From assembly GCA_030603685.1 (NCBI GenBank), contig JAUVXG010000002.1:3415-67414 (forward strand): DNA of 64,000 nucleotides, in the 5' to 3' direction. Positions 3,272 through 24,302 of this stretch are shown here, in pieces (within the stretch, counting starts at the first letter, position 1; the number at the start of each line of letters is the position of its first letter). The notes under the pieces were generated by a model, which saw nothing but the letters and a program-made list of their open reading frames with translations, was not told the DNA's origin and made no database searches. Made by a program: the position numbers and the translations under genes. Source of the DNA: Pleomorphomonas sp. (GTDB lineage: Bacteria; Pseudomonadota; Alphaproteobacteria; Rhizobiales; Pleomorphomonadaceae).

Positions 3272-3300
3272 TTGAAATGCGCTGTCTCCTGAGCTATGAG
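3272..3300 (+). promoter_or_regulatory. Putative sigma70-type promoter of the island tRNA-Arg
   Basis: TTGAAA (3272..3277), a 17-bp spacer, then TATGAG (3295..3300), ending 20 nt upstream of the tRNA 5' end at 3321. Confidence 0.4.
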
Positions 3301-3320
3301 GCGGTGGAAAAATGGAGTAA

Positions 3321-7627: not shown

Positions 7628-7680
7628 TTTCCTATATGGAGGAGGGGGGAGATAACCGGTTAAGCAATGGCCCTGTGACG

Positions 7681-9357
7681 TTACAGCTGCTGGAGAAACG
7701 TCTCTCGCAGACGGCGATACGGATCGGGCGGTGATGTGCCCGAGCTTGCGGCTTCAAGCAAAGTGTCGATTTCATCAGGGGTTAGTCGCGTGTAGACCTT
7801 ATGAGCCTCAAGGCTGCGATGGTGCATGCACTGTCGGATTACCTCGCCATCCACACCTGCAGTAAAAAGAAATCTTCCGTAGAAATGTCTTGCACCGTGA
7901 GGTGTCGTGCCAAATGCCTTTCGCGGCATTGCCAGATCAGAATCATCGAAGCGCCGCCCAGTCCTGACGATTGCGGCACGCCAGGCTTCATCGAAGGCGG
8001 ACATCGTGTAGGGATCACCGGCAAGCGTATCTTTTGAGCCACGCCCGACCAAAAGGAACGGATGGTCGAGTGCCGTTTTTGGACGCGTAGCAATCAATCG
8101 CGGGCGAGTTTCAAAAATGTAACGTCTCAGTAGAGCAGCGGTGCGGGCAATCAGAGGATCGATAGGCAGCCAATATCCCGGAGTGCCCACGTCATCGTCC
8201 GCCACGCCTTTCCATCCGGCCGCGAATGGTCCAGCCGCCAGCGTTCTCGCGGTCCATCCGAGTCTCTGGAGATAAACACCACGAGAGATTGCGCTTCCCT
8301 GGGCATCTCGAATTTGTCCGTATTCGGGATGATGCAGAAAGATCCACGGAGTGTTTCGAATGAACTGCACGTCTGAAAGGAATAAGTGAAGAGGCTCGCT
8401 TTTCCTTAGGCCCAAGGCGAAAATGAGATGAGCAAGCAGGCAAGCGGTGTCGTCGCAGCGCCCGCTATCGTTTGTAAATCCCCCATATAAAAACCGGCCA
8501 AGATAACGTGCCGGGAAAGTTGGAACTTTGCCAGTGCGGGCCGGTGAAGGCTTTAAAATATGCGGGAAGGCATGAGAGGGCGCGCGCCGGGTCGTTTTAA
8601 CGTGACCAAGCAGTGAAGTCTCCCGACGTCTTACAAGCTCAAGCGCCAATCGCAGGGAAACGATGGGGTCATTCGCTACCTTATGGGTTGTAATCGCCTC
8701 CACCCAGACGTTGGCCTTGTCATCGGATCTCAGCCACATGAAGTGCCGCGTTAGGGCGGAGAGAAGCACGTTAGCCTGCCGTCTTCCCAGTCCCGTCCAG
8801 TGGAGTCCGGTTTGATCGAAAGCCCGTCCGTCCTCATCCACCTGTATGGTGCCGTGCAAAAGACATCGAACGAAGCTTCTGAAGAGCTGGCGTTCGGTCC
8901 AACTGCCATGCGGTTTAGGAATCGATTGCCCGCCTCGGTGCGACGCCAGCGCAAAATCCACGAACAGGCCCACCGAGCGTGCAGTGTTTTTCATCCATGC
9001 ATAGGACATCGACGAATAATCATCGAAAAAATCCAGCAAGGGGGCATAACGAACGACCCGCTTCGTGTTCGCGTCAGTCGGAAGTGCGAGATACAGCACG
9101 GGCCAATGCGCTGTAGCACTCGCGTCGTGAACAGTCTGTCGCACAACAACATGGAAGAGTCCGCGTTCCGCGGTCCTGAACGAGATCGACTTCTGCATAT
9201 CGGCGACCGAAAAGTTGCGCTGGGGTGAACGGTGTTCTGGATCTTCGCATGTCGGTTCTGCACCGTACGGCAGTGCCAACACGCTGCGGACAGTCCGATC
9301 GGAAAGCCCCGGACACCGCTTGAAGGCCAACGTGGGATTCACGGGCGCGCGCCCCAA
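7681..9357 (-). CDS. Tyrosine recombinase/integrase (up to 558 aa; start uncertain)
   Basis: Motifs GLRKSEPLHL (Arg), HGARHFYGRF (HxxR) and HHRSLEAHKVYTRL (His...Tyr). It is the first gene of the minus-strand trio. Confidence 0.8.
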   Translation of the reverse strand: MGRAPVNPTLAFKRCPGLSDRTVRSVLALPYGAEPTCEDPEHRSPQRNFSVADMQKSISFRTAERGLFHVVVRQTVHDASATAHWPVLYLALPTDANTKRVVRYAPLLDFFDDYSSMSYAWMKNTARSVGLFVDFALASHRGGQSIPKPHGSWTERQLFRSFVRCLLHGTIQVDEDGRAFDQTGLHWTGLGRRQANVLLSALTRHFMWLRSDDKANVWVEAITTHKVANDPIVSLRLALELVRRRETSLLGHVKTTRRAPSHAFPHILKPSPARTGKVPTFPARYLGRFLYGGFTNDSGRCDDTACLLAHLIFALGLRKSEPLHLFLSDVQFIRNTPWIFLHHPEYGQIRDAQGSAISRGVYLQRLGWTARTLAAGPFAAGWKGVADDDVGTPGYWLPIDPLIARTAALLRRYIFETRPRLIATRPKTALDHPFLLVGRGSKDTLAGDPYTMSAFDEAWRAAIVRTGRRFDDSDLAMPRKAFGTTPHGARHFYGRFLFTAGVDGEVIRQCMHHRSLEAHKVYTRLTPDEIDTLLEAASSGTSPPDPYRRLRETFLQQL

Positions 9358-9571
9358 ATTGGGGATGACGCGTCAGTACGTCGTCTGACCCACACCAGAC
9401 GGGAATGTCAGGAGATTACAACCCGTTATTCCCTGCGATCTGCCGAGCGGGCCTTTGGCCTCGCGAGCGGAAGCGCACCCGTTGATGCGAACAGGTCTCT
9501 GGTGGGAATCAACAAGGAATGCTAGAAGGGATGCATACGACCTCCAGACCCGGCCCGGGGATGGTGTGTCG

Positions 9572-9603
9572 GTGGGTGGATGCGCGCCAACGCATCCACC
9601 CAC
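9572..9603. repeat. Perfect 13-bp inverted repeat (hairpin or operator) in the divergent region between the recombinase operon and the cargo
   Basis: GTGGGTGGATGCG (9572..9584), loop CGCCAA, CGCATCCACCCAC (9591..9603). It is followed by a second palindrome, AACGATcgaATCGTT, at about 9608..9622. Neither strand has a T-tract. Confidence 0.5.
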
Positions 9604-9687
9604 ACTTAACGATCGAATCGTTCACGTAGCCTGCAGACTATATCGCGCCGGTGATCCGTACAAGAACAATCGTACTTCGGACGAACA

Positions 9688-10194
9688 ATGCCACAGCCGG
9701 AACCCATGCTGGAAAGAGTCATCGCAGAGCTGCGATCAAAGGCGCGAACAGTAGAGGCCGAGCTGGTCGCGTTCCGGCAAAGAGCAACTGCTTATGAGGC
9801 GGAATTAGTCGCCGAGCTAGAAAAAACCAAGAAGAGAGTAAAGCTTTTTAGCGCTGAACTTGAGGCGATGAAAGGCGAGAACGGTACGCGTACCGCTGAT
9901 CCGTCGATGCCTGCAGCCAATAAGCCGCAACATGCGAGTGAAGAAGCTTCAGAATACATAAGCATATCCGAACTTATAAGGCTCAACGCAAGGGTTATAC
10001 TGAAGGAGGCCGGCTGCCCGTTGCCACCTCGTAAAATTAAAGAGATATTAGAATCTAGAGGCGTAGAAGTTTCCGCCACTAATCCGAACGAACTCATTAG
10101 AATTGCATTGTTTCGCCAGCCTTCTGAGTTCATAAATGTACGAAGTAAAGGGTGGACGCTTGTCGGGAAAAATGGAAGACCAATGTATGAGTAG
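9688..10194 (+). CDS. Coiled-coil protein with a C-terminal HARE-HTH-like winged-helix domain
   Basis: 168 aa. The N-terminal half has heptad-like, E/A/K-rich sequence. The C-terminal part, LIRLNARVILKEAGCPLPPRKIKEILESRGVEVSATNPNELIRIALFRQPSEFINVRSKGWTLVG, resembles HARE-HTH domains. Confidence 0.5.
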   Translation: MPQPEPMLERVIAELRSKARTVEAELVAFRQRATAYEAELVAELEKTKKRVKLFSAELEAMKGENGTRTADPSMPAANKPQHASEEASEYISISELIRLNARVILKEAGCPLPPRKIKEILESRGVEVSATNPNELIRIALFRQPSEFINVRSKGWTLVGKNGRPMYE

Positions 10195-10289
10195 TGGGCG
10201 TCGGCTCGTGTGGACGATGTATATTGGATTTGCTTTCTCTGAGATCGGTATATACTTGTTGAAGGCGAATTTTTGATTGCTTAATTGCG

Positions 10290-11369
10290 TTGATACAATT
10301 ATTAGGTGTTAACCGTACATTTTACGCCCACGGCAACACGGATATTTTCTTGAAGAACACAGATGTGCGCGGCTCAGCAGGAACCGCTCGTTCCCAAATA
10401 CAGAGCTTCGAGGACGGCGTGGAGAAAGTCGGAAAAGTTCCCGCGCGACTCTATAAATACAGAGCTTTCAGCACCCGCATGCTCGACTCGCTGGTCGAGG
10501 ATCAGCTGTTCTTTGCGGATCCCGGCACCTTCAACGATCCTCTCGACACGAAGCCGTCGCTCGATCCCGACATCGATGCGGATGCGCTGGCAGATATCCT
10601 TTTCCGGCTGGTGGAGCGACGTACCCATGATGAGATGAGTGCTGCCGCCAAGGCGATAAAGTACCGCGGCCCAAAGACCGTTAGTCACATTGCTGAATAC
10701 AGTCGGAAGCGTGCTGAACGGTCGATTGCAGAGGTTCGATACAGCGCGACGGACCCCACTTACGAGGTGGAAGATCCCGCCAAGTTTCTTTTCAGCCAAT
10801 ATGTCGAGACTGAGCTCATGCGTCGGTATGAGAAGGGTATATTCTCTCTCGCCGAGCGGCCGAATTGTCCATTGATGTGGAGCCATTATGGCGATCAACA
10901 CATGGGAGTTTGCATAGGGTACTCGGTGCCCGAGCAAGCCGAGGGGGACCTTTACCGGGTTAAGTACGGCGGAGACAGGTTGGTCGCGGCTTCCGAAGTA
11001 GCCGCGATGCTCGATGGGGATGAGAAAGCTCGTCGCAAGGTGGACGAGGCTGTTCTTACCCGTAAGGCAGCAGCTTGGCACTACGAGAAGGAGTGGCGAC
11101 TGATAGGTCCGCGCGGCCTCCAGGACTCCGGTTTGGAACTGGAGGAAGTCGTGTTCGGAATGCGCTGCTCCGCAGCCGTGAAGTATGCTGTCGTTCGCGT
11201 TCTTTCGGATCGTCGGCGCCCGGTGACGTTCTCAGAGATTTCTGTGCGGCCGGGAAAGTTCACGCTTAAGAAGGAAGAAGTGTCCATGGATGAGCTCCTC
11301 GAATTTTCGAGGCCGCGGCGCTCTTTGGACGTCAATGATTTTATTGAGGACCTGGACGGGGGCGACTGA
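10290..11369 (+). CDS. DUF2971 family protein (start uncertain; a GTG at 10365 is also possible)
   Basis: The signature LYKYRAFSTRMLDSLVEDQLFFADPGTFNDPLD is typical of DUF2971. The upstream leader is AT-rich. Confidence 0.65.
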   Translation: MIQLLGVNRTFYAHGNTDIFLKNTDVRGSAGTARSQIQSFEDGVEKVGKVPARLYKYRAFSTRMLDSLVEDQLFFADPGTFNDPLDTKPSLDPDIDADALADILFRLVERRTHDEMSAAAKAIKYRGPKTVSHIAEYSRKRAERSIAEVRYSATDPTYEVEDPAKFLFSQYVETELMRRYEKGIFSLAERPNCPLMWSHYGDQHMGVCIGYSVPEQAEGDLYRVKYGGDRLVAASEVAAMLDGDEKARRKVDEAVLTRKAAAWHYEKEWRLIGPRGLQDSGLELEEVVFGMRCSAAVKYAVVRVLSDRRRPVTFSEISVRPGKFTLKKEEVSMDELLEFSRPRRSLDVNDFIEDLDGGD

Positions 11370-11503
11370 GCATGTATGCCCGCATGGGCGAGACCCGAGC
11401 AGGACTAGGCTGACGAGTTGTTTATTGTTGCTAAAGCTAGGAAGCATCCGAGAACCTGGATCCCGACCTTCTGGGGCACTTTGGGCCGAAATTCTCCAGG
11501 AGG

Positions 11504-11791
11504 TCAATTATCTACATTTTCGTCACTAGAGCGTCCCGGCTCTGCCAGCCGTTCTCTTGCTGACACTCGGAATCTGATACGGCCCAGATAGTCGTCGACC
11601 TCGGTTGCGACTTCTACCCCTAGGGTGGCGAGACACAGTCTGAGCTTTTCGACCGTTTTCGTTGATGTCGATTTGCCCTGTTCCATTCGAAAAATGGTCG
11701 CACGGCTGACGCCCGCCGCGTCGGCTAGCTCACGCTGCGACATACCTAGGGCTCGGCGACCGGCCCTTATCATCAAGTTCAGATCACTCAT
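11504..11791 (-). CDS. XRE-family HTH transcriptional regulator
   Basis: LGMSQRELADAAGVSRATIFRMEQGKSTSTKTVEKL is a classical Cro/C1 HTH. The ORF extends to 11893, but the ATG at 11791 avoids overlap with the divergent AAA+ gene. Confidence 0.75.
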   Translation of the reverse strand: MSDLNLMIRAGRRALGMSQRELADAAGVSRATIFRMEQGKSTSTKTVEKLRLCLATLGVEVATEVDDYLGRIRFRVSARERLAEPGRSSDENVDN

Positions 11792-11873
11792 GGCTCTGCG
11801 TGGCAGCTGACGAACTCGCCAGTTCTGAGCCAGCCGATTGAACGCGTCAAACGAGCGCATCCAGAAGACAAGA

Positions 11874-13940
11874 ATGAATCCATACGGACTCATAAAAGAT
11901 GCCGAATGGATTCATTCGGCGTTGACGAGTTCGTTGGGAAGGGCATATTCCGACATGCCGATCAGTGATTCGCGCATTGATGCGAACGGATTTGGAGTCG
12001 CAATGCCTCGTTGGAAATCGACGAAAGAAGAAAAGCGTCGTCCCATCTCCGCGTTGGAGACGGTGGGGCGGCATCAATTCTCAAGCGTGTGCGTCTGGGC
12101 ATCCCTGATCTCGTCGATCCGGCATCTGATGAAACGGATGGAGTCGGGACCGGTGACAGTGGTTTGTGTCGCGCCTTCAGGAACCGATCCGGCTCTCTAC
12201 GAGGTTGCCTGGGATGCTCTGTGCAGAAAGCTCGCGTGGAAGCTAGGCGATCCTAGGAGCGTCTCCGGGAAGGCATTCGTGTTTCCGGCAGACAAGGCGG
12301 GTGTCAAAGGGCTATCGACCGATGAGAGATGGTGCGCAGGTTTTGCTTCCGATGTCTCAGACGTCCCGGCTTCCTTTGCGTCGTACGCCGAGGAGGTAAT
12401 CTCCATTCGGCCCATCACGGCCCGTGATATGCAGGCCGCCGCAAGACTGACCATCGGGTTTGAGCTTGAATCGACCGAGATCTCGGGCATCATCACGTCC
12501 AATCTTCCGGCGTATGACCACATTTTCCAGATGGGGCGAAAGCGAGCGCAAGTGGCAAAGGCCATACGACTCGTAACGGAATCCCACGGCAAAAAGAGCG
12601 CGACACGGGGCAAGGAAACGCTCACGCTTGACGAACTCCCCGGTATGGGCGCCGTCACGGTGTGGGCAAAAGAGGTTATTCAAGATCTGGAGGACTGGAA
12701 GGCCGGGAAAATAAACTGGGCCGATGTGGACCGTGGTATCATCCTTTACGGTCCGCCGGGTACTGGCAAATCCACCTTTGCAAAAGCGATGGCGGGCTCG
12801 GCGAAGATCCCATTGATCGCCGGGAGCATTGCGAAATGGCAAAGCTCGGGGCATCTTGGCGACATGCTTAAGTCGATGCGTGGCGCTTTTGCCAGCGCCG
12901 TGCGGCAAGCCCCGTCGATCCTACTAATTGACGAGATCGATGTCGTCGGCGATCGAGCAAAATTCGATTCCCAGCATCGTGACTACGACAACAAAGTGGT
13001 CGCGGCTCTACTGGAACTGCTCGATGGCGCAGAGACCCGCGAAGGTGTTGTCGTCATCGGGACGTCCAACTTCCATCCGCGCGAGGTGCTTGATCCGGCC
13101 CTCATTCGCCCCGGTCGGCTAGAAGCGTGGGTCGAGATACAAAAGCCTGACCACGCCGCTCGGATCGAGATTCTACGGGTTCACGGTGCGACGATTTCCG
13201 AGACCGAACTCGCACGGGTAGCAGAGAGAACAGAGGAAAGGACAGGCGCGGAGCTCGAAGCCTTGGTTCGCGCGGCGAAACGCTTTGCGCGTCGAGATGC
13301 GCGAGCACAATGCATCGATGATTATCTACGTACGTTGCCACGAACGCTTCCATTATCGGATTCGAATATCCGACGAACGGCGATTCATGAGTGCGGCCAT
13401 GCTCTCGCCGCCGTCGTTCTCAACCACGGACGCTTGGATCGCATCAGGATCATTCGCGAAATCGAAGAGCATACGATTCAGACAGCGGCCGGCAGAACCA
13501 TGATTGAAATGGCCGCCTACGACCTACGATCTCGGTCGGATCTCGAAGCGGAGATCGTTGTCATGCTTGCCGGAATGGCGGCCGAAGAGATGATTTATGG
13601 GGAGTGGACCGAAGGATCCGGTTGCTCGGAAACTTCGGACCTAGGCCACGCCACCTCTATCGCGCTTTCCATGTCGGGCATGTTCGGCATGCAAGGCTCG
13701 CTCGCTCGTGTCGTCAACGACCCGAAGACCTTTCGGATTATCGATAGCGGCCTCAGGCGAAGCCTGGATGATATCCTAGGAGTCGCAATGGAGCGCGCCC
13801 GGGCAATCGTCCGGGATGGAAAGGATGCTCTTGTCCGTATGTCGGAAGTCCTGATCGCCAAGGGCGAGGTGACGCAAGCAACCGTTCTCTCAATCATTGA
13901 GGAAAACACCAACCGGGAGGTGTTCGGTGATCGACATTGA
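11874..13940 (+). CDS. Soluble FtsH-like AAA+ ATPase fused to an M41 zinc peptidase, with an unknown ~280-aa N-terminal domain
   Basis: Walker A is GPPGTGKS and Walker B is ILLIDEIDVVG. The second region of homology is ALIRPGRLEAWVEI. The peptidase part has HECGH (HEXXH) plus SDLGHAT (compare FtsH NDIERAT). No hydrophobic TM segments are seen. The ORF opens at a TTG at 11838, and the first ATG is at 11874. Confidence 0.8.
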   Translation: MNPYGLIKDAEWIHSALTSSLGRAYSDMPISDSRIDANGFGVAMPRWKSTKEEKRRPISALETVGRHQFSSVCVWASLISSIRHLMKRMESGPVTVVCVAPSGTDPALYEVAWDALCRKLAWKLGDPRSVSGKAFVFPADKAGVKGLSTDERWCAGFASDVSDVPASFASYAEEVISIRPITARDMQAAARLTIGFELESTEISGIITSNLPAYDHIFQMGRKRAQVAKAIRLVTESHGKKSATRGKETLTLDELPGMGAVTVWAKEVIQDLEDWKAGKINWADVDRGIILYGPPGTGKSTFAKAMAGSAKIPLIAGSIAKWQSSGHLGDMLKSMRGAFASAVRQAPSILLIDEIDVVGDRAKFDSQHRDYDNKVVAALLELLDGAETREGVVVIGTSNFHPREVLDPALIRPGRLEAWVEIQKPDHAARIEILRVHGATISETELARVAERTEERTGAELEALVRAAKRFARRDARAQCIDDYLRTLPRTLPLSDSNIRRTAIHECGHALAAVVLNHGRLDRIRIIREIEEHTIQTAAGRTMIEMAAYDLRSRSDLEAEIVVMLAGMAAEEMIYGEWTEGSGCSETSDLGHATSIALSMSGMFGMQGSLARVVNDPKTFRIIDSGLRRSLDDILGVAMERARAIVRDGKDALVRMSEVLIAKGEVTQATVLSIIEENTNREVFGDRH

Positions 13941-14280
13941 TAATGCCGACTCATTTGGAAACGATGAGGTTCTGGATAGGGAGATCAGTCGCCTGGAGCG
14001 ACTTCTGGTCGACCTACGACACATTCGGATCTATGGCGTGCCGGATGAGGTTTCACTTCAGGCCGCGCCGATATTGGATCGGTGGTCCAGGTCTTTTACA
14101 ACGGCTTTGTGCCTCGTCGGGAGCTCTACTGGCCATCCAATCCTTTCTGGTACCGACCGATACATCGCTACGAGTGATCTGTGCGTGATTTCGGAGCGCG
14201 GGAGTTGGGCGCGAACGCGGTCGAGATATTATCGGCTTGGGAGAAAGATCGATATGAATACGAAGTTCGTGCTTTCATGA
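13927..14280 (+). CDS. Small hypothetical protein, translationally coupled to the AAA+/M41 gene
   Basis: The ORF frame opens at 13897. The GTG at 13927 overlaps the upstream stop at 13938..13940. I recognise no motif. Confidence 0.45.
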   Translation: MIDIDNADSFGNDEVLDREISRLERLLVDLRHIRIYGVPDEVSLQAAPILDRWSRSFTTALCLVGSSTGHPILSGTDRYIATSDLCVISERGSWARTRSRYYRLGRKIDMNTKFVLS

Positions 14281-14389
14281 GGAACGGTGATTTCTCGCAG
14301 GAAAGTTGTTAATGAGCGTGTCCAAGGCGTAGGGCTTGCTGATAGCATCGGGAGCGGCATTGCGCCCGATTACATGAAGTGTCAGCATC

Positions 14390-17300
14390 ATGGACGCCGT
14401 CGAGAGAGAACCGGAAGCGGACAGAATTCAAAGGATCTTTCGCGATCTTAGTGATGAGGAGGTTGTCGACCTCGAACGGGTAAGTTCGCTCCTTTCCTTG
14501 GGCATGGCTGCCGGAATTGGGTGGAACGAGCTTCTACAATCCCAGCGAATTCTCATCGTTGCCGAGGCTGGTACCGGAAAGACTCATGAATGCCAGCAAC
14601 AGCAACGCTTGCTTTGGGAAGCTGGTGAACCTGCATTCTTCTTCGAGCTAGCCACACTGGCCACCACCGAACCGCGCAAACTTCTCAGCCCGGATGAGGA
14701 GGCACGGTTTGATGCCTGGCTCACGGCGCAGTCGGATGTAGCGACCTTCTTTCTCGATTCCATTGATGAGCTGAACTTCACCTCAGGTTCCTTCAAGGCC
14801 GCCTTGCTCCAACTCAATCGAGCTCTCGGAGGGCAGCTCGGTCGAGCTAGAGTTGTCATTACGACGCGACCGGTTCCCTTCGATCAACAGGTGACTAGGC
14901 TTTTGTTGCCGGTTCCGGAAAGTAATGATGCCCCCCTCAGCGCCGAGCAACTAGCCGATATTTCGCTTGGGCGAAGCGCTAAGAAGACAGACGAGACGGC
15001 TCCGCCGGCCTGGCGAAGCGTGGGCCTTCTACCCCTGAATGACGAGCAAATTCGTCAAATGGCCATTACCCAGCGCGTCTCCGATGTCGACAGCCTCCTC
15101 TTGGATATCCGACAGCGGAACGCCGAAGACTTCGCAAGACGGCCGCAGGATCTGATCGAACTCTGCGCGGACTGGAACAGTGCACGACGAATCCGATCTC
15201 ACGGGGAGCAGGTAGCCGAGAACATTAGGGTAAAGCTGCTCCCCCGACGCCAAGAGAAAGCCCCGCTGTCCGGGGATCGCGCACTCGAAGGCGCTCGACG
15301 GTTGGCGCTGGCTGCGCTATTGGCCAGAAAGCTGACGATCCGCCATAGCGCAGAGGCGGACCTGGGTGGACCGAGCGAACCCGCCCTCGATCCGGCGAGA
15401 GTTCTTTACGACTGGACCCTAGAGGAACGCGCCACCTTGCTGGAGCGTGCATTGTTCGGCGTCGCCAGTTACGGTCGCGTTCGTTTCCACCACCGTTCCG
15501 TTTTGGAATACTTGGCGGCCGAGCAAATCGAAGCGATGCTTTCTAGAGGGATGTCGATCAAGGCGGCGAAGCGTCTGCTTTTTGCGGAGACCACCCAAGG
15601 CTCCGATATCGTGCGCCCGTCAATGCGCCCCGTCGCGGCCTGGATGGCGGGAAGGCGCCGTGGCTTTTTTGACGAGGTGCTACGACGCGAGCCGGAGGCG
15701 CTGCTGAATCTCGCCGACCCCCAGGCACTCGATCTGGAGCAGCGACGACAGGCCCTGAATGCCTTCGTGGCCCGCTACGGAGTGGGTGGATGGAGAGGAC
15801 TAAGGGTTCCCTTCATTCAGGCTCATCGCTTTGTCTCGCCGGAACTGGCACCGGATGTGACCAGAATCTGGAACAGTGGAATCCAGAACAGCGAGGTTCG
15901 CGATCTGTTGCTCACGCTGATCGAAGCGGGGCGGCTGCTCGATTGCGAAAGCATAGTGCATGACTTGGCAATTGCTGATGATACCCCTCTCGGAGAGAGG
16001 CTTGCCGCCATCGATGCGCTCGTGGCGCTGAATTCGCCCTCGCTCAGCGAAGTAATGCGGCTGATGCAGACACGACCGGAGGTCTGGACGGATCAGGTCG
16101 TTCGCCGGATGATTCCGCGCGTTTTTCCAAAACACATGAGCGTGGAGCAGCTCTCATTACTGTTGAAGCGCGTCGGCGAGGATCGAATCCTCATAGACGA
16201 CCTCACCTGGTATCTTCCGCGGATCATCGCATCCCCATCGTTTCCGGATACCTTGCTTGAGCCCTTGCGGGCGTGTCTGACCGAGTGTCTCGTCGAGGGG
16301 GCGTCCTGGACGGCGGCATGGCCCCACTTCGCGACGGCAAGGGCTTACCTGGCACCGTCTCTCGCGCAGGTCTGTCTCAAACTGCTCGAAAATGGACAAC
16401 GGACCAGAGACACGTTGCGCTCCGCCGCCCTGGCTTTTCGCTTCGGCAACGATAACGGAATGTGTGGCGAGCCCATACAGAGGCTGCTAGAGGCGCGCGA
16501 AGATTTCTCAAGCGCCGAGCGCGAGGCGGCGTTCTGGGCCGAGGACGAGTTTCTCCAATCCCTCCATTCGGAGCCAAGACCGTTCGAGCGGCTCTGGGAA
16601 TTAGGGCGAAACGAAACACTAATGCCGACCTCGGAAAAAGACCTTCCGTGGATTCTGGCGGGCATCGGTGATCGTGGACGCTCGTTTGACGACCGAGCAT
16701 TTCTGCTGGAGATTGCGGGACGCTGCCTGCGGCCCGACGGGGTATCATGGCAGGATTATGCGGCCGCACTGAGAGTCAGAGTGAATGATCAGCCGTTGTT
16801 GGTCGCGACGATCGACGACTGGCTCAAGCCAAGGCCGGTGGACCCGCGGCAAGAGGAATGGCAACGCGAGCATCAACGCCGCGTAGACGAGCAGAAGGAA
16901 AAGGAGGCTCGGGCACGTGAAAGTTGGATCGCGTTTTGGAAAAGGGTCTCCAGCGACCCGAGCAGCGCATTCACCGATGAAAGCTCCTACAGTACTGTTT
17001 GGAACCTTTGGACGGCGATGGAGCGCGCCGGCGCTAACAGTCGGGCCTCAGGATGGAACAGACGCTTCATCGAGAGCAATTTCGGCAGAGAGGTCGCCGA
17101 ACTTCTCCGAGCGGCCTTGGGTCCTATTTGGCGCGCGGACCGGCCGACGCTTGCGATGGAGCGAAAGCCGAAGAGGCGGACAACGACCTACGTCCGATGG
17201 CAATTGGGACTTACCGCTCTAGCCGCCGAGTCCGAGGATCCGGGCTGGGCTCTGAAGCTGACCGATGAGGAAGCCGAGACTGCCGCTCGATACGCTCCCA

Positions 17301-18769
17301 TTGAGTTGAACGCTTTCCCGACATGGTTCGAAACGTTCGCTTCGGCGCACCCTGGCGTTCTGGACCGAACGATCGGGGCTCTTCTCACCTTTGAACTTAA
17401 GCAATCGGCACGTTCGTCACAGTGGTTCTCGCCGATCTTGCAGAACCTTACGCACACGACATCGGCTGTAGCCGCGTTGTTTATTCCGAGATTGCGAAGG
17501 TGGCTTGACGATTTTGGCGATCGGCTTCGCAGAGGCGAAAGCCTTGAAGCGGCGAGCGAGCGGCTGCAGCAGGTTATCGAGGTACTTCTCCAGCATGGTG
17601 ACACCGAGACAAGGGAGCACATCGTCTCACTCGCCAAGCGCCGACTAAGACGCCTCGGGCGGCGGTTTGAGAGCGTTTGGCTGGCGGTTCTTCTTCGGCT
17701 TGAGCCCGCAGCCGGAGTTGCAGCCCTCGAACGAATCCTGGCGCGGATCCCCGTCTCCCCCGATTCAACCGCTCTGGATTGGTTCGGCCAACTCTTCGGC
17801 GAGCGGCGCCGCGGAACGCTGATCGATCTTTCTCAACCGGGGTTTACTCCGGGCTTGCTGCTCCGATTGACTCGGCGCGCTTACATCCACGTTCGGCCAA
17901 TGGATGACGTGCGTCACGAGGGATCCTATTCCCCCGGCCGAAGGGATCATGCCGAGCGCGGGAGGGGAACCATTCTATCCGCCTTGCTTCAAACCAAGGG
18001 GCCGGCCGGATGGGCTGCCAAACTCGAAATGGCCAATGATCCTCTGTTCGGCGACTTTCGCGATCGGGCCTTAGTCGTTGCACTGGAGAAGGCGGCGGAG
18101 GAGGTGGACAACGCCGTACTGAGCGATACGGACATAGCCAACCTCAACCGTTTCAACGAAGCGCGCCCTACCAGCCGCGAAGCCATGTTCGCTCTTATGC
18201 GCGATCGGCTGGACGATCTCGACGAGTTGTTGCTGGAAGACGTCTCGCCTCGCGAAAGCTGGGCGAAGATCGACGAGGAGCGCATCATGCGCCGGGAGAT
18301 TGCCCGGGAGTTGCTCAATCATGCCAATAATTGTTACACGGTCGACCAAGAGGCCGCCACAGCGGATGAGAAGGAAACCGACATCCGTCTGAGAGCTATG
18401 TCCGGTCATCAAGGCGTCGTGGAGCTGAAGATTGGCGAAAAGCCGAGATCCGCAGCCGACCTACGCGATGCGCTGACAAACCAACTGGTAAGGAAGTATA
18501 TGGCAGCCGACGAGTGCCGGGCCGGATGCTTACTGATAACGCTCGCGACCGATCGGACCTGGAGCCATCCCGAGAGCGGACAGAGTCTGGCTTTCAAAGC
18601 GTTGATCGACTGGCTGAACAGCGAAGCCCAGAAGATTGTCGTCCGTGCGGCGGGGGAAATTCGACTTTACGTCAAGGGGCTCGATCTTCGCCCAAGGCTT
18701 GCCCCTGAAAGGACCGCGCCGATCAAACCATCGGCTCCTACCCGTCGCAAAGGACGAACGCAGAAGTAG
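14390..18769 (+). CDS. NACHT/STAND P-loop NTPase (1459 aa) with long helical repeats and a C-terminal PD-(D/E)xK-like nuclease domain
   Basis: Walker A is AEAGTGKT (aa 58-65) and Walker B is FFLDSIDE. VVITTRP matches the NACHT TSRP-type motif. The C-terminus reads ...KETDIRLRAMSGHQGVVELKIGEK...TNQLVRKY, a D...ExK arrangement (aa ~1331-1347). Confidence 0.75.
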   Translation: MDAVEREPEADRIQRIFRDLSDEEVVDLERVSSLLSLGMAAGIGWNELLQSQRILIVAEAGTGKTHECQQQQRLLWEAGEPAFFFELATLATTEPRKLLSPDEEARFDAWLTAQSDVATFFLDSIDELNFTSGSFKAALLQLNRALGGQLGRARVVITTRPVPFDQQVTRLLLPVPESNDAPLSAEQLADISLGRSAKKTDETAPPAWRSVGLLPLNDEQIRQMAITQRVSDVDSLLLDIRQRNAEDFARRPQDLIELCADWNSARRIRSHGEQVAENIRVKLLPRRQEKAPLSGDRALEGARRLALAALLARKLTIRHSAEADLGGPSEPALDPARVLYDWTLEERATLLERALFGVASYGRVRFHHRSVLEYLAAEQIEAMLSRGMSIKAAKRLLFAETTQGSDIVRPSMRPVAAWMAGRRRGFFDEVLRREPEALLNLADPQALDLEQRRQALNAFVARYGVGGWRGLRVPFIQAHRFVSPELAPDVTRIWNSGIQNSEVRDLLLTLIEAGRLLDCESIVHDLAIADDTPLGERLAAIDALVALNSPSLSEVMRLMQTRPEVWTDQVVRRMIPRVFPKHMSVEQLSLLLKRVGEDRILIDDLTWYLPRIIASPSFPDTLLEPLRACLTECLVEGASWTAAWPHFATARAYLAPSLAQVCLKLLENGQRTRDTLRSAALAFRFGNDNGMCGEPIQRLLEAREDFSSAEREAAFWAEDEFLQSLHSEPRPFERLWELGRNETLMPTSEKDLPWILAGIGDRGRSFDDRAFLLEIAGRCLRPDGVSWQDYAAALRVRVNDQPLLVATIDDWLKPRPVDPRQEEWQREHQRRVDEQKEKEARARESWIAFWKRVSSDPSSAFTDESSYSTVWNLWTAMERAGANSRASGWNRRFIESNFGREVAELLRAALGPIWRADRPTLAMERKPKRRTTTYVRWQLGLTALAAESEDPGWALKLTDEEAETAARYAPIELNAFPTWFETFASAHPGVLDRTIGALLTFELKQSARSSQWFSPILQNLTHTTSAVAALFIPRLRRWLDDFGDRLRRGESLEAASERLQQVIEVLLQHGDTETREHIVSLAKRRLRRLGRRFESVWLAVLLRLEPAAGVAALERILARIPVSPDSTALDWFGQLFGERRRGTLIDLSQPGFTPGLLLRLTRRAYIHVRPMDDVRHEGSYSPGRRDHAERGRGTILSALLQTKGPAGWAAKLEMANDPLFGDFRDRALVVALEKAAEEVDNAVLSDTDIANLNRFNEARPTSREAMFALMRDRLDDLDELLLEDVSPRESWAKIDEERIMRREIARELLNHANNCYTVDQEAATADEKETDIRLRAMSGHQGVVELKIGEKPRSAADLRDALTNQLVRKYMAADECRAGCLLITLATDRTWSHPESGQSLAFKALIDWLNSEAQKIVVRAAGEIRLYVKGLDLRPRLAPERTAPIKPSAPTRRKGRTQK

Positions 18770-18775
18770 CCTCGT

Positions 18776-19300
18776 TTATATGAGGGCGATGTCCCCGTCT
18801 TGATAGGCACTGAACGCCATATCGATCTCGTTCGGCGTCATATAAAGCCCACCGCATGCCGCATCGAGAAACCGTCGTACGCACATAAGGCCATCCTGCG
18901 TTCCGCTGTTGATCAATGCCATTGGCGGACGACCGCCGAACAGTGGAACCTTGTTGGGCGTCCTCAGCCACGCGACGCCCTCCCGTTCGTCCGATTGTAG
19001 TACGCCGAGGGATTGGTGGATGCCGAGAACGATCGAGATGCGCATGAGCGTGTCAACGTTCAGCATGATGTCCCGACACTCTCGAACCGCGTTCGTCCAT
19101 TTGCGGTAAGTGGAACGCGACGGCATTCCGAGGATGAGCAGGCGCTCCTCCTCACTTAATCCCCAAAGCTCGGCGATGTTCAGAAAGGTCCGCAGCCCGG
19201 GCGCACCGAGTCTACGGCGATTTGCGCGAGAGAAGCGCTCCGCGGCCGAGAGCAGCATGTCGTGGGCGCCATCAAACGCACCGCGCTTCCGGGTTACCAT
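18776..19300 (-). CDS. MbcA/ParS/Xre-type antitoxin-like protein (Xre-like HTH plus DUF2384)
   Basis: RISIVLGIHQSLGVLQSDEREGVAWLRTPNKVPLFGGRPPMALINSGTQDGLMCVRRFLDA matches the DUF2384 toxin-binding domain pattern. The ATG at 19300 has AAGGAG 6 nt upstream, whereas the ORF track start at 19402 has no comparable site. Confidence 0.75.
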   Translation of the reverse strand: MVTRKRGAFDGAHDMLLSAAERFSRANRRRLGAPGLRTFLNIAELWGLSEEERLLILGMPSRSTYRKWTNAVRECRDIMLNVDTLMRISIVLGIHQSLGVLQSDEREGVAWLRTPNKVPLFGGRPPMALINSGTQDGLMCVRRFLDAACGGLYMTPNEIDMAFSAYQDGDIALI

Positions 19301-19439
19301 GTCTGCTCCTTCGGCTGTTCGGTCTTCCCTTGTCGCTGTCCGGTGAGCAGGAGGCGGGCACGTGGCCGCTTCCTTTCTTTTATGCAGGCGAGAACCTGTC
19401 ACGCCTACTTGAGCTGGAATGCGGGAGTGGGATTACAAG

Positions 19440-19961
19440 TTACGACTCCGCACTCAACGACGCGGACAACAAGCCACGCCGCTCGATCTCAGCCATCAGA
19501 GCCGCGTCAGAAAGCTTCGCCAACATGGCCTCTTCCGCGACGCGGACCCCACCTTTGCGAATGATCGGCAGCGCTTCCGAGAACAGAATGCCGTGTCTTT
19601 CGGCGACCGTTGCAAAGGCCTCATGGATGGTGCGGTAGTTTCGCTCGATCTCCGCGCCGATCTGTTGAAATGTGCCAACGACGTGAAACTCGTCGAACTC
19701 AGCTCTGATCGACGCGTCCGGATCGCCTTCGAGCATCAGGCGGCCGTCCTTTTTCTCGAAGACGACGGAGTGGTAGACGGTGTCCATAAAGATGGTCTGA
19801 TTTGCCGTAGCCTTTATCGAGATGGAGCCGTCGTCCTTAGCTTCAACTAGATAGTCCCAGGCCTTATCGTCTTCCCATTGGCCGATAACGATCCCATCGA
19901 CAGCTGCCTGCAGATCGGCGAGAAAACGACCGTGTCCAGTGTCTTGCGCTTCGGAAGCCAT
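19440..19961 (-). CDS. Hypothetical 173-aa protein upstream of the DUF2384 gene
   Basis: Clean ORF with GAGGA upstream of the ATG. I recognise no motif. Confidence 0.5.
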   Translation of the reverse strand: MASEAQDTGHGRFLADLQAAVDGIVIGQWEDDKAWDYLVEAKDDGSISIKATANQTIFMDTVYHSVVFEKKDGRLMLEGDPDASIRAEFDEFHVVGTFQQIGAEIERNYRTIHEAFATVAERHGILFSEALPIIRKGGVRVAEEAMLAKLSDAALMAEIERRGLLSASLSAES

Positions 19962-20172
19962 CCTATTCCTCGTACCTTCAATGAACGGAGCATGCCCAAT
20001 GCACGCGGGGTCCGCGCGCCTTCCACCCCGTCACTTTTGCCCGTACGAGCTCGACGAGTCGGCCGCCATTCTAGGCGCCATTTGCTCGATGAAGCCACTG
20101 TCGACATAGTCTTCCGTCGGCTCCGGCGAGCGTCTCGACGACCGGGATGGAGGCAGGAGCAGCTAAAGGGAG

Positions 20173-21066
20173 TCATCGCCTGAACCGAGGCGTCCAGCTC
20201 TCTATCATCGCTTCGTCGTCATCCTCGTCCTCGGCGTCCTCGACTCGGTTGGTGAGTGCCTTGCAGGTTAGGACGGTCAGCGTCTTCGCGTACTGGCCAA
20301 GGCCAACGATCTCTTCGGTGATTGCGTACCTACGCTCGCCATCCATCCAGTCATTGAGGAGCCCGTCGGCGGAGTCCCGCTGTCCGGTTCGGACATTGGC
20401 GGGGCGAGCATTGAAACGCTCGGTTAGGGTGCCGCCAGGAACCGGGGTACCTTTCCTAAGCCAGGTCAAACCCTTCGCCTGCTTCAAACCATCAGACATA
20501 AAACACCAGTCGATGGACTGTCCGCTACTCAGCACCACGGCGACGCCATCGGGAGTAAGTGACGCGTAGCGAATGGCGGTTGAGGTGAGCGAGGTCTCGC
20601 AAGCCTTAGCCAACGCCTCAATACCTGCGAGACCGGCTGCGTAATTGTCGATCGCCTTTTTAAATGGGCGCTCTGGCATCAACAGCGCAGCAGCGAAATA
20701 GTCCGCTTCCTGTTCGAAGGGGTCGGCTGACGCAAAGCCCGCCTGTGAACAGTGCACTCCGCCAATCAATAAGGCTTCCGGGTGGCCTTCAATGCAATAA
20801 TGCCCCAACTCGTGTGCGATGCTGAACCTTTGGAAGCCGCGGCTCGGAATGCGGGTAGCATAGAGGATGCCAAATTCATCACCGGCCTTGAGCAGCATGC
20901 CGGACACGCCCTCGGCGGTATCCGGCTTCGCCATGACGGTTATGCCTTTGTCGGTGGCAATGGCTTCGGGGTCAACGTGTAGAGTTTCGATCTTCATTTG
21001 ATGAAGTAACGCGCTGGCTGCAGCCTCCACCATGCTGCGTCGCGCCAGCCTCGGCCTTCCCGTCAT
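20173..21066 (-). CDS. ImmA/IrrE-family zinc metallopeptidase (CapP-like)
   Basis: FSIAHELGHYCIEGH (HEXXH). 297 aa. Its start overlaps the stop of the upstream XRE gene (21063..21066). Confidence 0.8.
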   Translation of the reverse strand: MTGRPRLARRSMVEAAASALLHQMKIETLHVDPEAIATDKGITVMAKPDTAEGVSGMLLKAGDEFGILYATRIPSRGFQRFSIAHELGHYCIEGHPEALLIGGVHCSQAGFASADPFEQEADYFAAALLMPERPFKKAIDNYAAGLAGIEALAKACETSLTSTAIRYASLTPDGVAVVLSSGQSIDWCFMSDGLKQAKGLTWLRKGTPVPGGTLTERFNARPANVRTGQRDSADGLLNDWMDGERRYAITEEIVGLGQYAKTLTVLTCKALTNRVEDAEDEDDDEAMIESWTPRFRR

Positions 21067-21419
21067 TTGTCATCCTCCGTTGCACCGCGCTTCCTGATCA
21101 GCAGGTTTACAAAGTCCTTCGCCAGCTCCAAGTCCTGCGACGTGAGTTTATGTAGGTCGCGGTGAAGACGCCCAACGGTTTCGGCCGACGCATCGGGAGT
21201 CTCCGAACGGCCCAGTAAATAGTCCGTCGTCACGTCGAGAGCGGATGCCAAAACCTTCAGGTTGTCGAACGACGGCTTTCGCGGCCCCGATTCGAAATGA
21301 GATACCGATGCCGGCGGCAAATTCGCCTTGGCGGCAAGTTGTGCCTGGCTAAGGCCGCGAAGCTCGCGAGCCGCCCTAAGACGTTCCTTAAAGATATCAG
21401 CTGGTTGATCAGGGGTCAT
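21063..21419 (-). CDS. XRE-family HTH regulator (ImmR/CapH-like)
   Basis: LRGLSQAQLAAKANLPPASVSHFESGPRKPSFDNLKVLASALDVTTDYLLGR. It is coupled to the ImmA-like gene. Confidence 0.8.
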   Translation of the reverse strand: MTPDQPADIFKERLRAARELRGLSQAQLAAKANLPPASVSHFESGPRKPSFDNLKVLASALDVTTDYLLGRSETPDASAETVGRLHRDLHKLTSQDLELAKDFVNLLIRKRGATEDDK

Positions 21420-21434
21420 GGCATTCCCGACATG

Positions 21435-21478
21435 GTTAACTTGACAATATCGCCACTTCGAGTCATCGTGGCGTTAAC
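21435..21478. promoter_or_regulatory. Putative operator/promoter between the XRE-ImmA pair and the ubiquitin-like operon
   Basis: GTTAAC (21435..21440), TTGACA (21441..21446), the inverted repeat CGCCAC (21451..21456) / GTGGCG (21468..21473), and GTTAAC (21473..21478). Confidence 0.35.
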
Positions 21479-21536
21479 GGCAATTTTCGCATGGCGGAGT
21501 CGCAAGTATCAACCCCTGAAATCCAAGGAAATGACC

Positions 21537-21779
21537 ATGGCAAAAAACGACAGGTTCGTGGTGAAGCATGGAGAGGACTGGGCGGTGAAGCGTGCGGGGG
21601 TGGCTCGGCCGGAAAGCGTGCACAATCTGCAAAGCCAAGCCGAACAGCAGGCCAAGTCCACAGTTCGTAGCTTAGGCGGCGGCGAGGTTCGCATTCAGGG
21701 ACGCGATGGAAAGTGGCGGGATTCCGACACGGTGGCGTCCGGTCGAGACCCATCACCGCCGCGCGACCGCAAACACTGA
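21537..21779 (+). CDS. DUF2188 domain protein
   Basis: MAKNDRFVVKHGEDWAVKRAGVARPESVH...GEVRIQGRDGKWRDSDT is the DUF2188 pattern. AGGAA lies 7 nt upstream. An alternative ATG is at 21531. Confidence 0.65.
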   Translation: MAKNDRFVVKHGEDWAVKRAGVARPESVHNLQSQAEQQAKSTVRSLGGGEVRIQGRDGKWRDSDTVASGRDPSPPRDRKH

Positions 21780-21795
21780 GTAAGGAGCAGTCGAA

Positions 21796-22521
21796 ATGAG
21801 TGCCATCGATGCATCGGAGCACAACTCGGCCAGCCGACTGGGTCAGGACAGGTTCATCGCGCGTATTGCCGACGAAAGCTTTGTCTTCCGTGATTTCCCC
21901 TTCGACGAGCGCGAAGTCACCGGTGGGCAATTGGCCGAACGGATGCGAGCCCATCCCGTAACTGACTACGTCGTGCTTCAGCAGCTTGAAACTCTCGAAT
22001 TGGAAACTCTGCGTCCAAATGAACCGGCCGACCTTGCGAAGTCGGTTCGCTTCTTCGTCATCCGCGGTGACGCCGTTTACAGCTTCGTCGTTGATGGTCT
22101 GAGCATGGTCTGGCCGCGAAAGGTCATCGATGGTCGCAGCATCAAGCGCCTTGTCGATAAGGAAGACGACGCCTTCGAGCTTCTGCTTGAGCGCGAGGAC
22201 GAACCTGATCTGATCATCGGCGACAAGGACGAGGTGCACCTTTCGGACGATGGCGTTGAGAAGTTCCAGACCCGGCCAGTCAAGCCGAAAGTCACGATCA
22301 TCGTCGAGGGTACGCCGCATGTCTGGACCAAGAAGACCATCAGTTACGATGAGGTGGTCACGCTAGAGGTCCCCGACTACCCACAGCATCCGGAGATCAC
22401 CTACTCGGTAAAGTACAAGAACGGCGTCGGTGAACGGCCCGAAGGTGTTCTCGTCAAGGGAGCATCGGTCAAGGTCAAGAATGGGATGATCTTCAGTGTT
22501 TCACCAACTGGTCAGTCATAA
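21796..22521 (+). CDS. Multi-ubiquitin (tandem beta-grasp/Ubl repeat) protein
   Basis: 241 aa with about three repeats of the pattern hhhVxGxxxxWxxxxIxxxxh...V (for example VTIIVEGTPHVWTKKTISYDEVV and YSFVVDGLSMVWPRKVIDGRSI). AAGGAG precedes the ATG. It sits immediately upstream of an E1-like gene. Confidence 0.65.
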   Translation: MSAIDASEHNSASRLGQDRFIARIADESFVFRDFPFDEREVTGGQLAERMRAHPVTDYVVLQQLETLELETLRPNEPADLAKSVRFFVIRGDAVYSFVVDGLSMVWPRKVIDGRSIKRLVDKEDDAFELLLEREDEPDLIIGDKDEVHLSDDGVEKFQTRPVKPKVTIIVEGTPHVWTKKTISYDEVVTLEVPDYPQHPEITYSVKYKNGVGERPEGVLVKGASVKVKNGMIFSVSPTGQS

Positions 22522-23701
22522 CGACGACATTCGTCGTCTCGTTGAGAAGGGATATGCGGTCGGGTACGATAGCGAATATCTGCTCGTTCGCGACATTCCC
22601 TATCTCGATGAGAGGATGGAGCTGCAAATCGGTGCCATCGTCACGAAGCTGGTCTTCAAGGATCAGAACTGCGTCGGGCAGGACGATCACCAGATATTCT
22701 TCGCCGGCTCCCATCCATACAACATCGACGGAACGCCCATCGCCAATCTGGGCGGAGGGACAACATCACTGGCGTTGAGTCCTGCGGCTGCCGATATCAA
22801 GGTGCAGCGGAGCTTCTCCAATAAGCCGTGGGTCAACGGAAAGGGGGTTGGGTTTCCGGATTTCTTCGCAAAGATCGAGAGCTATGTCGGTATCATTTCG
22901 GGGCCGGCCATCGAACTGCGGGGCGGCAACCCATATACGTTTCGTACAGTGGGAGCCGTTGCCTCGGACTCCGTGTTCAAGATTCACGACACTCTGACCA
23001 GTCGTGCCGAGATTGGGGATTTGTCAGCAAAGTTCAGGAACGAGGTGGTCGCGATAATTGGCCTTGGGGGCACTGGAGCTTATCTCCTGGATTTCCTGGT
23101 GAAGACGCCAGTTAGGGAAATCCGCGGCTTTGATCTCGATGATTTCCACGTTCACAACGCCTTCCGTTCACCCGGCAAACTAGATGAGGGCGAGTTTCAG
23201 TGCAGAAAGGCTGACGTCTATCAGGCTCGCTACGATAACTTTCGACATGGGTTGTCTCTAAGAGCGAAGTTCGTCGATGATTCCGCCGTGGACGATTTAG
23301 ATGGGGTGACCTTCGCTTTCGTGTGCGTCGACAAGGGGACATCGAGGGCGGGCGTCTTCGAGCTTCTGATGACCAAGAAGATCCCGTTCATTGACGTTGG
23401 AATGGGCCTGAAGCGGCGGGAAGGCGGGGCGCTCAATGGCATGATGCGCACCACATACTATTCCGAGAACGACGCGGAGAAAGTAAAGGGAAAAGGGCTT
23501 TCCGAACTGTCTGGACATGCCGACGATCTTTATCGCACCAATATCCAGATCGGCGAGCTGAATGCGCTCAATGCGGCTCTCGCGGTTATCAAGTACAAGC
23601 AGATAAAGGGATTCTACTTCGAAGAAGCCCCTACATATCATCTTCTCTTCGAGATCGCCGATCTGAAAACCACTCCCGAGTCGAACCTTGACGAAGATTG
23701 A
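22496..23701 (+). CDS. E2-like N-terminal domain fused to a ThiF/MoeB-type E1 adenylyltransferase
   Basis: The Rossmann motif IIGLGGTGAYLL (aa 187-198), GFDLDDFHVHNAFRSPG and FVCVDK fit the E1 nucleotide-binding core. The N-terminal ~165 aa contain SHPYN (aa 72-76), reminiscent of the E2 HPN motif. The GTG start overlaps the Ubl gene by 26 nt. Confidence 0.75.
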   Translation: MFHQLVSHNDDIRRLVEKGYAVGYDSEYLLVRDIPYLDERMELQIGAIVTKLVFKDQNCVGQDDHQIFFAGSHPYNIDGTPIANLGGGTTSLALSPAAADIKVQRSFSNKPWVNGKGVGFPDFFAKIESYVGIISGPAIELRGGNPYTFRTVGAVASDSVFKIHDTLTSRAEIGDLSAKFRNEVVAIIGLGGTGAYLLDFLVKTPVREIRGFDLDDFHVHNAFRSPGKLDEGEFQCRKADVYQARYDNFRHGLSLRAKFVDDSAVDDLDGVTFAFVCVDKGTSRAGVFELLMTKKIPFIDVGMGLKRREGGALNGMMRTTYYSENDAEKVKGKGLSELSGHADDLYRTNIQIGELNALNAALAVIKYKQIKGFYFEEAPTYHLLFEIADLKTTPESNLDED

Positions 23702-23729
23702 AACCATCGCCTCCCGTCGCGTCGAGTTC

Positions 23730-24098: not shown

Positions 24099-24302
24099 AG
24101 GGGCACCTAGCTTCAAGGAAAGTCCCTCATAACAGCCAAATGATCGTCTGGCGAAGACCTCGGGGAAATCCGCCAATCTCTGGGCTAAAGTCCGGGAGCG
24201 CTTTGGGCCAGGTTCGGACACCGAGGCGCGACCGGAAGGCCCGGACGGACGCAGCACAGAAGTAGCCAAGAGGCGATCGCTGAGGGGGGCGGTTTTTATT
24301 CC

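Follow-up and report, generated by a model that had tools for sequence, protein, structure and literature searches.

A HyoA antiphage gene and a soluble FtsH-like protease module are probably separate cassettes in a mobile island of Pleomorphomonas

Members of the Avs10 family of STAND proteins (Erebus, Hypnos and bNACHT64) are reported to respond to the HK97-fold major capsid protein of phages, and in E. coli a single protein was reported to suffice (Lee et al. 2026, PMC12803255). Other described systems combine ATPases, peptidases and repressors in more than one gene, among them IetAS, CapH/CapP and ImmR/ImmA, and GMT islands carry defence-rich cargo together with tandem genes for GmtY (a tyrosine recombinase), GmtZ (Phage_Integr_2/Integrase_2) and GmtX (bioRxiv 10.1101/2023.03.28.534373). 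Here we describe a locus at positions 11504-18769 of a 64,000-nucleotide stretch of Pleomorphomonas sp. DNA (GenBank assembly GCA_030603685.1, contig JAUVXG010000002.1; hereafter the window) that holds a gene for the STAND/NACHT-like protein HyoA and, next to it, genes for an XRE-family regulator, a soluble FtsH-like ATP-dependent zinc protease (AAA-M41) and a small DUF6634 protein. An earlier note on this DNA had joined all four genes into one functional system. Our analysis makes it probable that HyoA on the one hand, and the XRE/AAA-M41/DUF6634 module on the other, are two independent cassettes that stand side by side in a mobile island (Table 1).

The four open reading frames (ORFs) listed in the earlier note are all present where it placed them, and its call of a defence locus was borne out. 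HyoA scored 1469.4 bits against NCBIfam NF058534 ("NACHT domain-containing antiphage protein HyoA", cutoff 1200), its residues 13-1436 covering positions 1-1430 of the 1430 in the model, and matched the sister model EruA weakly (109.8 bits, cutoff 1000). By profile match the gene is a further member of an already named single-gene antiphage family, and the supposition that the locus is without a match to a named system did not hold, given a NACHT protein above the HyoA cutoff; the narrower statement, that the pairing of a NACHT protein with a protease of this kind belongs to no named system, stands. Neither Pfam nor PADLOC gave a significant match on HyoA (Pfam NACHT was sub-threshold, with E=0.052 and 13.8 bits vs a cutoff of 26.7), and a PDB profile search with the protein returned no match. 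When motif conservation was judged over 22 homologues, residues G61, G63, K64 and T65 of the Walker A motif GTGKT (aa 61-65) were conserved in at least 90%, and D123, D126 and E127 of the Walker B region, as well as D1319, E1321, D1331 and E1345-L-K1347 in the C-terminal region, were invariant. As for the earlier description of a giant NACHT-nuclease, the NACHT half derives from the NCBIfam HyoA model, with Pfam NACHT below its threshold, and the nuclease half corresponds to a motif match only. The long central region gave no domain match and may be the sensor. (Note that searches of the literature with the names HyoA and EruA returned nothing relevant.) The protein shares with the HyoA family a length of ~1450 aa, a predicted N-terminal STAND/NACHT-like P-loop NTPase and occurrence as a single gene in variable regions and defence islands; it differs in its setting, 109 nt behind a protease module to which it is unrelated, and the capsid trigger and nuclease effector proposed for it are those of the family.

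More than 1500 homologues of HyoA, ~1450 aa in length, are distributed across many phyla. The protein is ~50% identical to most of these relatives and 74% identical to the closest. One cluster of HyoA proteins with at least 90% identity combines Altericroceibacterium and Sphingosinithalassobacter (Sphingomonadales) with a Martelella plasmid (Rhizobiales), and this cross-order cluster points to a probable recent horizontal transfer of the single gene. We surveyed the surroundings of HyoA by an alignment-based scan with one genome per species, which yielded 80 loci (each taken with 10 kb on either side) from Alpha-, Beta- and Gammaproteobacteria, Desulfobacterota (deltaproteobacterial lineages), Verrucomicrobiota, Chlorobiota, Latescibacterota and others. 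At none of the 80 loci was M41 or DUF6634 found within 10 kb of HyoA (tblastn and the DUF6634 hidden Markov model). Weak AAA-only matches occurred at four loci, and the AAA genes that adjoin HyoA in L026 (14590..18226) and L035 (5894..9508) proved on inspection to belong to IetA+IetS, a different known system, whose presence beside HyoA at two of the 80 loci most likely reflects defence-island clustering. Moreover, clustering of the flanking ORFs gave no conserved neighbour of HyoA across the 80 loci; the commonest flanking families, which were recombinases, reached 6 of the 80. At the level of gene content, these neighbourhoods indicate that HyoA has no obligatory partner gene and a single-gene organization.

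The XRE/AAA-M41/DUF6634 module, in turn, recurs in six independent close relatives, and intact HyoA is absent from all of them. In L006, whose AAA-M41 is 82% identical at the amino acid level and whose backbone is the same (~100% identity over the recombinase genes), the interval where the window has HyoA holds SLATT, ThsB_TIR and TIR_2 genes on the other strand. In L170 (81%, same backbone) DUF6634 is followed by AbiJ, and in L005 (63%, homology restricted to the module, which sits in another backbone) by a convergent DruE gene of Druantia. The Oryzibacter locus L169 (75%) has housekeeping genes upstream and, behind DUF6634, a set of vWA, PP2C and kinase genes, and L167/L168 (79%), among housekeeping genes, carry a HyoA stub and then an inverted Xre/MbcA/ParS gene. 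Comparison by blastn aligned positions 3318..14344 of the window with 1..11001 of L006 at 94.8% DNA identity. In window coordinates, homology stops at 14344 for L006, at 14280 for L170 and at 14246 for L169, and similarity to L006 restarts at 18813, within the Xre/MbcA/ParS-like gene. Three sister elements with a near-identical backbone therefore hold HyoA, SLATT/TIR or AbiJ in one slot, which amounts to a clean cassette exchange. We propose that the slot behind DUF6634 would be a site of exchangeable cargo, the contents of which would be swapped by homologous recombination in or beside the module.

Two further features of these relatives bear on the junction between the module and HyoA. When positions 11100..14344 were compared with L006, DNA identity formed a mosaic within the module, at 99% over 12318-12617 and at ~70-74% over 13218-14344, a low-identity stretch that comprises the M41 domain plus DUF6634. 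This mosaic suggests a recombination tract that may have accompanied the cargo swap; co-evolution of M41 and DUF6634 was considered as a source of the pattern and rejected, the recombination tract being the simpler explanation. The HyoA stub of L167 (9465..9845) and L168 (4351..4731) comprises the first 127 codons at 75% amino acid identity and has an in-frame stop. It lies directly behind an intact AAA-M41/DUF6634 pair, with the same spacer as in the window, so that in these two loci the module is intact though HyoA has decayed. Together, the stub and the inverted Xre/MbcA/ParS gene resemble a scar that deletion and inversion left at this junction.

The protease of the module contains Pfam AAA (3.3e-27), AAA_lid_3 and Peptidase_M41 (1.3e-15) domains. 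(Residue numbers refer to the 661-aa form, with its start at 11955; the database copy also has 661 aa.) An invariant Met, M17 of this form, aligns with the starts of most homologues and, together with an upstream GGAG of the Shine-Dalgarno type read directly from the sequence (11993-11996), argues for a start at 12003 and an AAA-M41 of 645 aa. The earlier note had given ~689 aa; its AAA and M41 domains are confirmed, and its length is probably too great (661 or 645 aa). AAA-M41 belongs to a family of ~650-aa proteins that is common in Rhizobiales, all named sources of its relatives being alphaproteobacterial, in contrast to the wide spread of HyoA, and positions 207-643 of the family profile match the cytosolic chains of FtsH in the PDB (E~1e-82). 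Among 21 homologues, the Walker A and B motifs, the sensor-1 residue N372, the Arg fingers R385 and R388, the H478-E-x-x-H482 motif (HECGH), E544 and D562 are invariant, as is a distinctive pore loop, W295-Q-x-x-G-H-L-G; in the alignment, D562 falls on the position of the third zinc ligand in FtsH.

AAA-M41 thus shares with FtsH (TIGR01241) the AAA, lid and M41 regions, the last with HEXXH and the third-ligand Asp, together with Walker A/B, sensor-1 and Arg fingers. However, it scores 182.1 bits against TIGR01241, vs a cutoff of 600, has W-Q-x-x-G-H-L-G in its pore loop where FtsH has M-F-V-G, and is without TM (transmembrane) helices or a periplasmic domain, in place of which stands a putatively degenerate, AAA-like N-domain of ~200 aa. 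A further difference from FtsH is the setting of the AAA-M41 gene, which occurs in islands and on plasmids and has XRE and DUF6634 as partners. In a Kyte-Doolittle analysis with a 19-residue window and a threshold of 1.6, no TM segment was found in AAA-M41, the maximum being 1.17; because this maximum is under 1.6, the protein is predicted to be soluble, which agrees with the dedicated soluble FtsH paralogue of the earlier note. No hydrophobic stretch of TM strength is present in AAA-M41, DUF6634 or HyoA.

The N-domain of AAA-M41 gave no sequence match. Its AlphaFold2 model (predicted local distance difference test, pLDDT, 79.5) has an alpha/beta plus helical fold, and its top 50 fold matches in the PDB are all P-loop NTPase modules, nearly all of them AAA+, with probabilities of up to 0.98 but E-values of at least 1.7e-3 and TM-scores of at most 0.45. 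The domain also holds a P-loop remnant, APSGTDP, without the Lys. The model and these matches lend weak support to the N-domain being a degenerate first AAA domain.

The GTG start of the DUF6634 gene overlaps the stop of the AAA-M41 gene by 14 nt, an overlap that the earlier note had pointed out and that is kept in L005, L006, L167, L169 and L170; the small gene is translationally coupled to the protease gene. The DUF6634 family comprises at least 818 clusters at 50% identity; the AlphaFold2 model of the protein is poor (pLDDT 64) and gave no fold match. In a sample of about 45 soluble AAA-M41 genes, DUF6634 directly adjoins AAA-M41 on the same strand at 11 loci and lies 3.2 kb away at a twelfth. 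DUF6634 is downstream of AAA-M41 in the clade of the window and upstream in distant loci, and this linkage, which outlasts a change of gene order, argues for a functional link between the two proteins. In subfamilies of soluble AAA-M41 that lack DUF6634, its place as partner is taken by a ~210-aa protein, a metallophosphoesterase or a PIN protein. On plasmids of Paracoccus, Ketogulonicigenium, Falsirhodobacter and Thalassobaculum (L173, L175, L177 and L174), hosts that are all alphaproteobacterial, DUF6634 also follows a Lon-like AAA ATPase (362-369 aa) or an RNase H-like gene, and the sets with Lon-like AAA and DUF6634 carry a metallophosphoesterase and a recurring 135-aa protein. The presence of DUF6634 beside different AAA genes suggests that this small protein is promiscuous and partners mostly AAA+ machines.

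The XRE protein has an HTH_3 domain (Pfam). Its conserved portion opens with MSDLNL, and because of this its start is likely at 11791. XRE is 77-100% identical, and divergently placed beside AAA-M41/DUF6634, in L005, L006 and L167-L170, and the same XRE family is found upstream on the opposite strand at 13 of the sampled AAA-M41 loci. The intergenic region between XRE and AAA-M41 contains a perfect 8+8 palindrome, GCCGAATGgattCATTCGGC, at 11901-11920, followed by a promoter-like TTGACG-16-CATATT at 11922-11949 (consensus match). The palindrome may be an XRE operator that overlaps the promoter of the module. XRE also gave a weak match to the PADLOC capH model (1.4e-6).

The earlier note's view that XRE, AAA-M41, DUF6634 and HyoA form one functional system, with a protease that would act on the sensor (to license, mature or reset it, or to degrade it) or serve as a second effector, has several points in its favour. 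The HyoA ORF begins 109 nt past the DUF6634 ORF and is co-directional with it, and the spacer between them showed no terminator-like site, so that read-through into HyoA is possible; the L167/L168 lineage inherited the same junction; and IetAS, which pairs a AAA+ ATPase with a protease, adjoins HyoA at 2 of 80 loci. Nevertheless, we consider this view very improbable. The module occurs at none of the 80 HyoA loci and intact HyoA in none of the six independent close relatives of the module, the slot in the sister elements is filled by defence genes of other kinds, which in part lie on the other strand, HyoA decayed in L167 while the module stayed intact, and related Avs10 members were reported as single-protein systems in E. 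coli (PMC12803255). The AAA-M41/DUF6634/HyoA unit is not kept across the loci compared, and the idea that the protease licenses or resets a NACHT sensor finds no support there; there is no evidence for a protease-dependent NACHT sensor, and a false lead is thereby removed. Four points weigh against our account of HyoA and the module as independent cassettes. The module-HyoA junction occurs in at least two lineages, namely the window and the ancestor of L167/L168, at ~80% DNA identity; co-transcription of DUF6634 and HyoA in the window strain is possible; HyoA may be the Hypnos of the Avs10 family, an equation made through the names; and the C-terminal motif of HyoA may denote a nuclease of the PD-(D/E)xK type, a likeness at motif level.

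As to what the module does, the likeliest role, which we put forward tentatively, is that XRE/AAA-M41/DUF6634 is a new and autonomous system, either for defence or of a toxin-antitoxin-like kind; in a weaker form of this proposal, the module would modulate whatever defence cargo is inserted downstream of it, HyoA included. Defence genes found near the module comprise PDC-S31, HyoA, TIR/SLATT, AbiJ, DruE, SIR2+HerA, MzaC+HATPase and the vWA/PP2C/kinase set, and TerY-P-like genes are also among its neighbours. It is unlikely, in our estimate, that the module is a portable switch with the logic of CapH/CapP or ImmR/ImmA, in which the protease would remove XRE on a signal and so induce the downstream cargo. 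The weak capH match, the palindrome and promoter-like site of the control region, and the co-directional defence genes directly downstream of the module in the window (HyoA), L170 (AbiJ), L104 (Mza-like) and L167 (the HyoA stub) would fit such a switch, but in L006 (SLATT/TIR), L005 (DruE), L095 and L118 the genes that follow the module are convergent with it, the L167 module persists among housekeeping genes with nothing but a dead HyoA stub behind it, the protease belongs with the FtsH-type unfoldases and not with site-specific peptidases of the M78/ImmA type, and DUF6634 is also paired with Lon-like AAA and RNase H-like genes. Quite improbable, too, is a role in mobile-element housekeeping instead of defence, for instance in controlling how the GMT-like island is excised, transferred or maintained. 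In the window, L006 and L170 the module does have the conserved recombinase-trio backbone as its neighbour; however, the modules of L167 and L169 are without the recombinase trio within 9 kb, the module also occurs on plasmids, its identity to L006 falls from 99% to ~70% where that of the backbone is ~100%, and its neighbours are overwhelmingly defence genes.

No PADLOC model and no specific NCBIfam model was found for the XRE/AAA-M41/DUF6634 module, and nothing relevant was found in the literature on M41/FtsH in defence or on DUF6634. This marks a gap in the catalogues, in that a soluble FtsH-like protease with DUF6634 and XRE stands repeatedly amid known defence systems. Like IetAS, AAA-M41 brings together a classical-clade AAA+ ATPase and a protease in a defence-island setting, and it matches IetA models at 9e-23; the PADLOC IetA match covers its AAA core only. 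It differs from IetAS in that ATPase and protease are fused and the protease is an M41 metalloprotease, vs the S8 subtilase IetS, and in that its partners are DUF6634 and XRE. An assignment of AAA-M41 to IetAS was rejected (76.4 bits against NCBIfam IteA, where 510 is needed, and no subtilase in the locus). With CapH/CapP and ImmR/ImmA the module shares an XRE repressor beside a zinc metallopeptidase near defence or mobile-element genes. In those systems, however, the peptidase is M78/ImmA-like, whereas here it is an FtsH-type unfoldase; the module adds a conserved small protein and has no consistent orientation toward a regulated operon. A CapH/CapP-type pair was accordingly discarded as an identity for the module, its peptidase being M41/AAA and the downstream orientation inconsistent.

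We suggest the following scheme for the two cassettes. XRE would repress the divergent promoter through the palindrome at 11901-11920. AAA-M41 would form a hexamer that unfolds and degrades substrates, and the translationally coupled DUF6634 would be its adaptor, inhibitor or substrate. If the module is a defence system, a protease released or retargeted on infection would shut down the cell or destroy phage proteins, and DUF6634 would serve FtsH-like or (on Rhodobacterales plasmids) Lon-like partners as adaptor, inhibitor or decoy substrate. HyoA would act separately, by analogy with the Avs10 family to which its name points: during infection the large region taken to be its sensor would recognize and bind major capsid protein of the phage, its NTPase would drive oligomerization, and its C-terminal PD-(D/E)xK-like domain would abort the infection by cutting DNA. 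Were the defence or toxin-antitoxin-like role to be true, ATP-dependent metalloproteases would constitute a class of effector or regulator, and DUF6634 would gain a function.

Table 1 Features of the Pleomorphomonas locus and of the island around it (window coordinates)
Feature	Position	Strand	Basis or content
Short direct repeats ACCGGTAAGTTT and GGTTCGAATCC	3249..3260/33419..33430; 3620..3630/33487..33497		Near both GC (guanine-plus-cytosine) boundaries
GMT-like recombinase trio	3972..9357	minus	558-aa Phage_integrase, 994-aa Integrase_2, 224-aa protein without match
Conserved 168-aa protein without family match; DUF2971 protein	9688..10194; 10290..11369	plus	
XRE-family helix-turn-helix regulator	11504..11791 (maximal ORF to 11893)	minus	HTH_3 E=5.8e-12
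Divergent control region	11792..12002		Palindrome, promoter-like site, Shine-Dalgarno-type site
Soluble FtsH-like ATP-dependent zinc protease (AAA-M41)	12003..13940 (maximal ORF 11838..13940)	plus	Pfam AAA + AAA_lid_3 + Peptidase_M41
Candidate degenerate AAA-like N-domain of protease	~12003-12590	plus	AlphaFold2 model and PDB fold search
Active AAA domain of protease	~12615-13319	plus	Pfam AAA
M41 peptidase domain of protease	~13335-13937	plus	Pfam Peptidase_M41
DUF6634 small protein, 117 aa, GTG start	13927..14280	plus	PF20339 1.5e-11
Spacer with cassette junction	14281..14389		blastn homology breakpoints vs sister elements
HyoA, 1459 aa	14390..18769	plus	NCBIfam NF058534
P-loop NTPase of HyoA (~aa 54-165)	14549-14884	plus	Conserved motifs
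C-terminal PD-(D/E)xK-like motif region of HyoA (~aa 1290-1400)	18257-18589	plus	Invariant residues
Right junction of HyoA cassette	18770..18812		L006 similarity back from 18813
Xre/MbcA/ParS-type antitoxin-like gene; 173-aa protein without family match	18776..19402; 19440..19961	minus	
ImmA/IrrE-type M78 peptidase; XRE helix-turn-helix gene	20173..21066; 21063..21419	minus	Overlapping
Multiubiquitin-domain protein; DUF6791 + ThiF (E1-like) protein	21796..22521; 22496..23701	plus	
Type I restriction-modification set: HsdR; HsdS; HsdM	24567..27338; 28965..30869; 30866..32917	minus	
Mrr_cat restriction endonuclease gene	27308..28384		Inserted among Hsd genes

The island that carries the two cassettes is a low-GC region at ~3300..33500, with a GC content of 0.52-0.60 vs 0.64-0.70 in the flanks, and its backbone is ~100% identical to that of L006. 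With GMT islands it shares a tyrosine recombinase, an Integrase_2-type integrase and a small protein in the same order, and defence-rich cargo; this likeness is judged by Pfam architecture, and the relatives of the island are alphaproteobacterial, whereas GMT was named for Gammaproteobacteria and described as abundant in them. The short direct repeats near the boundaries could be att remnants; at 11-12 bp they are statistically weak (E 0.12-0.5). GGTTCGAATCC resembles a tRNA T-arm, and ARAGORN detected no tRNA in the window.

The remaining cargo lies on both sides of the locus. To the left, the DUF2971 protein matches the PADLOC candidate system PDC-S31 (1.6e-40), and its gene and the preceding 168-aa gene are also present in L006 and L170. 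To the right, no RES toxin was recognized beside the Xre/MbcA/ParS-like gene; the pair of this antitoxin-like gene and the 173-aa gene is kept in L006, and the antitoxin-like gene is inverted in L167. The overlapping M78 peptidase and XRE genes constitute a second protease-repressor pair within the island. Farther along, the Multiubiquitin and ThiF genes look like a ubiquitin-like conjugation cassette of the defence-island type.

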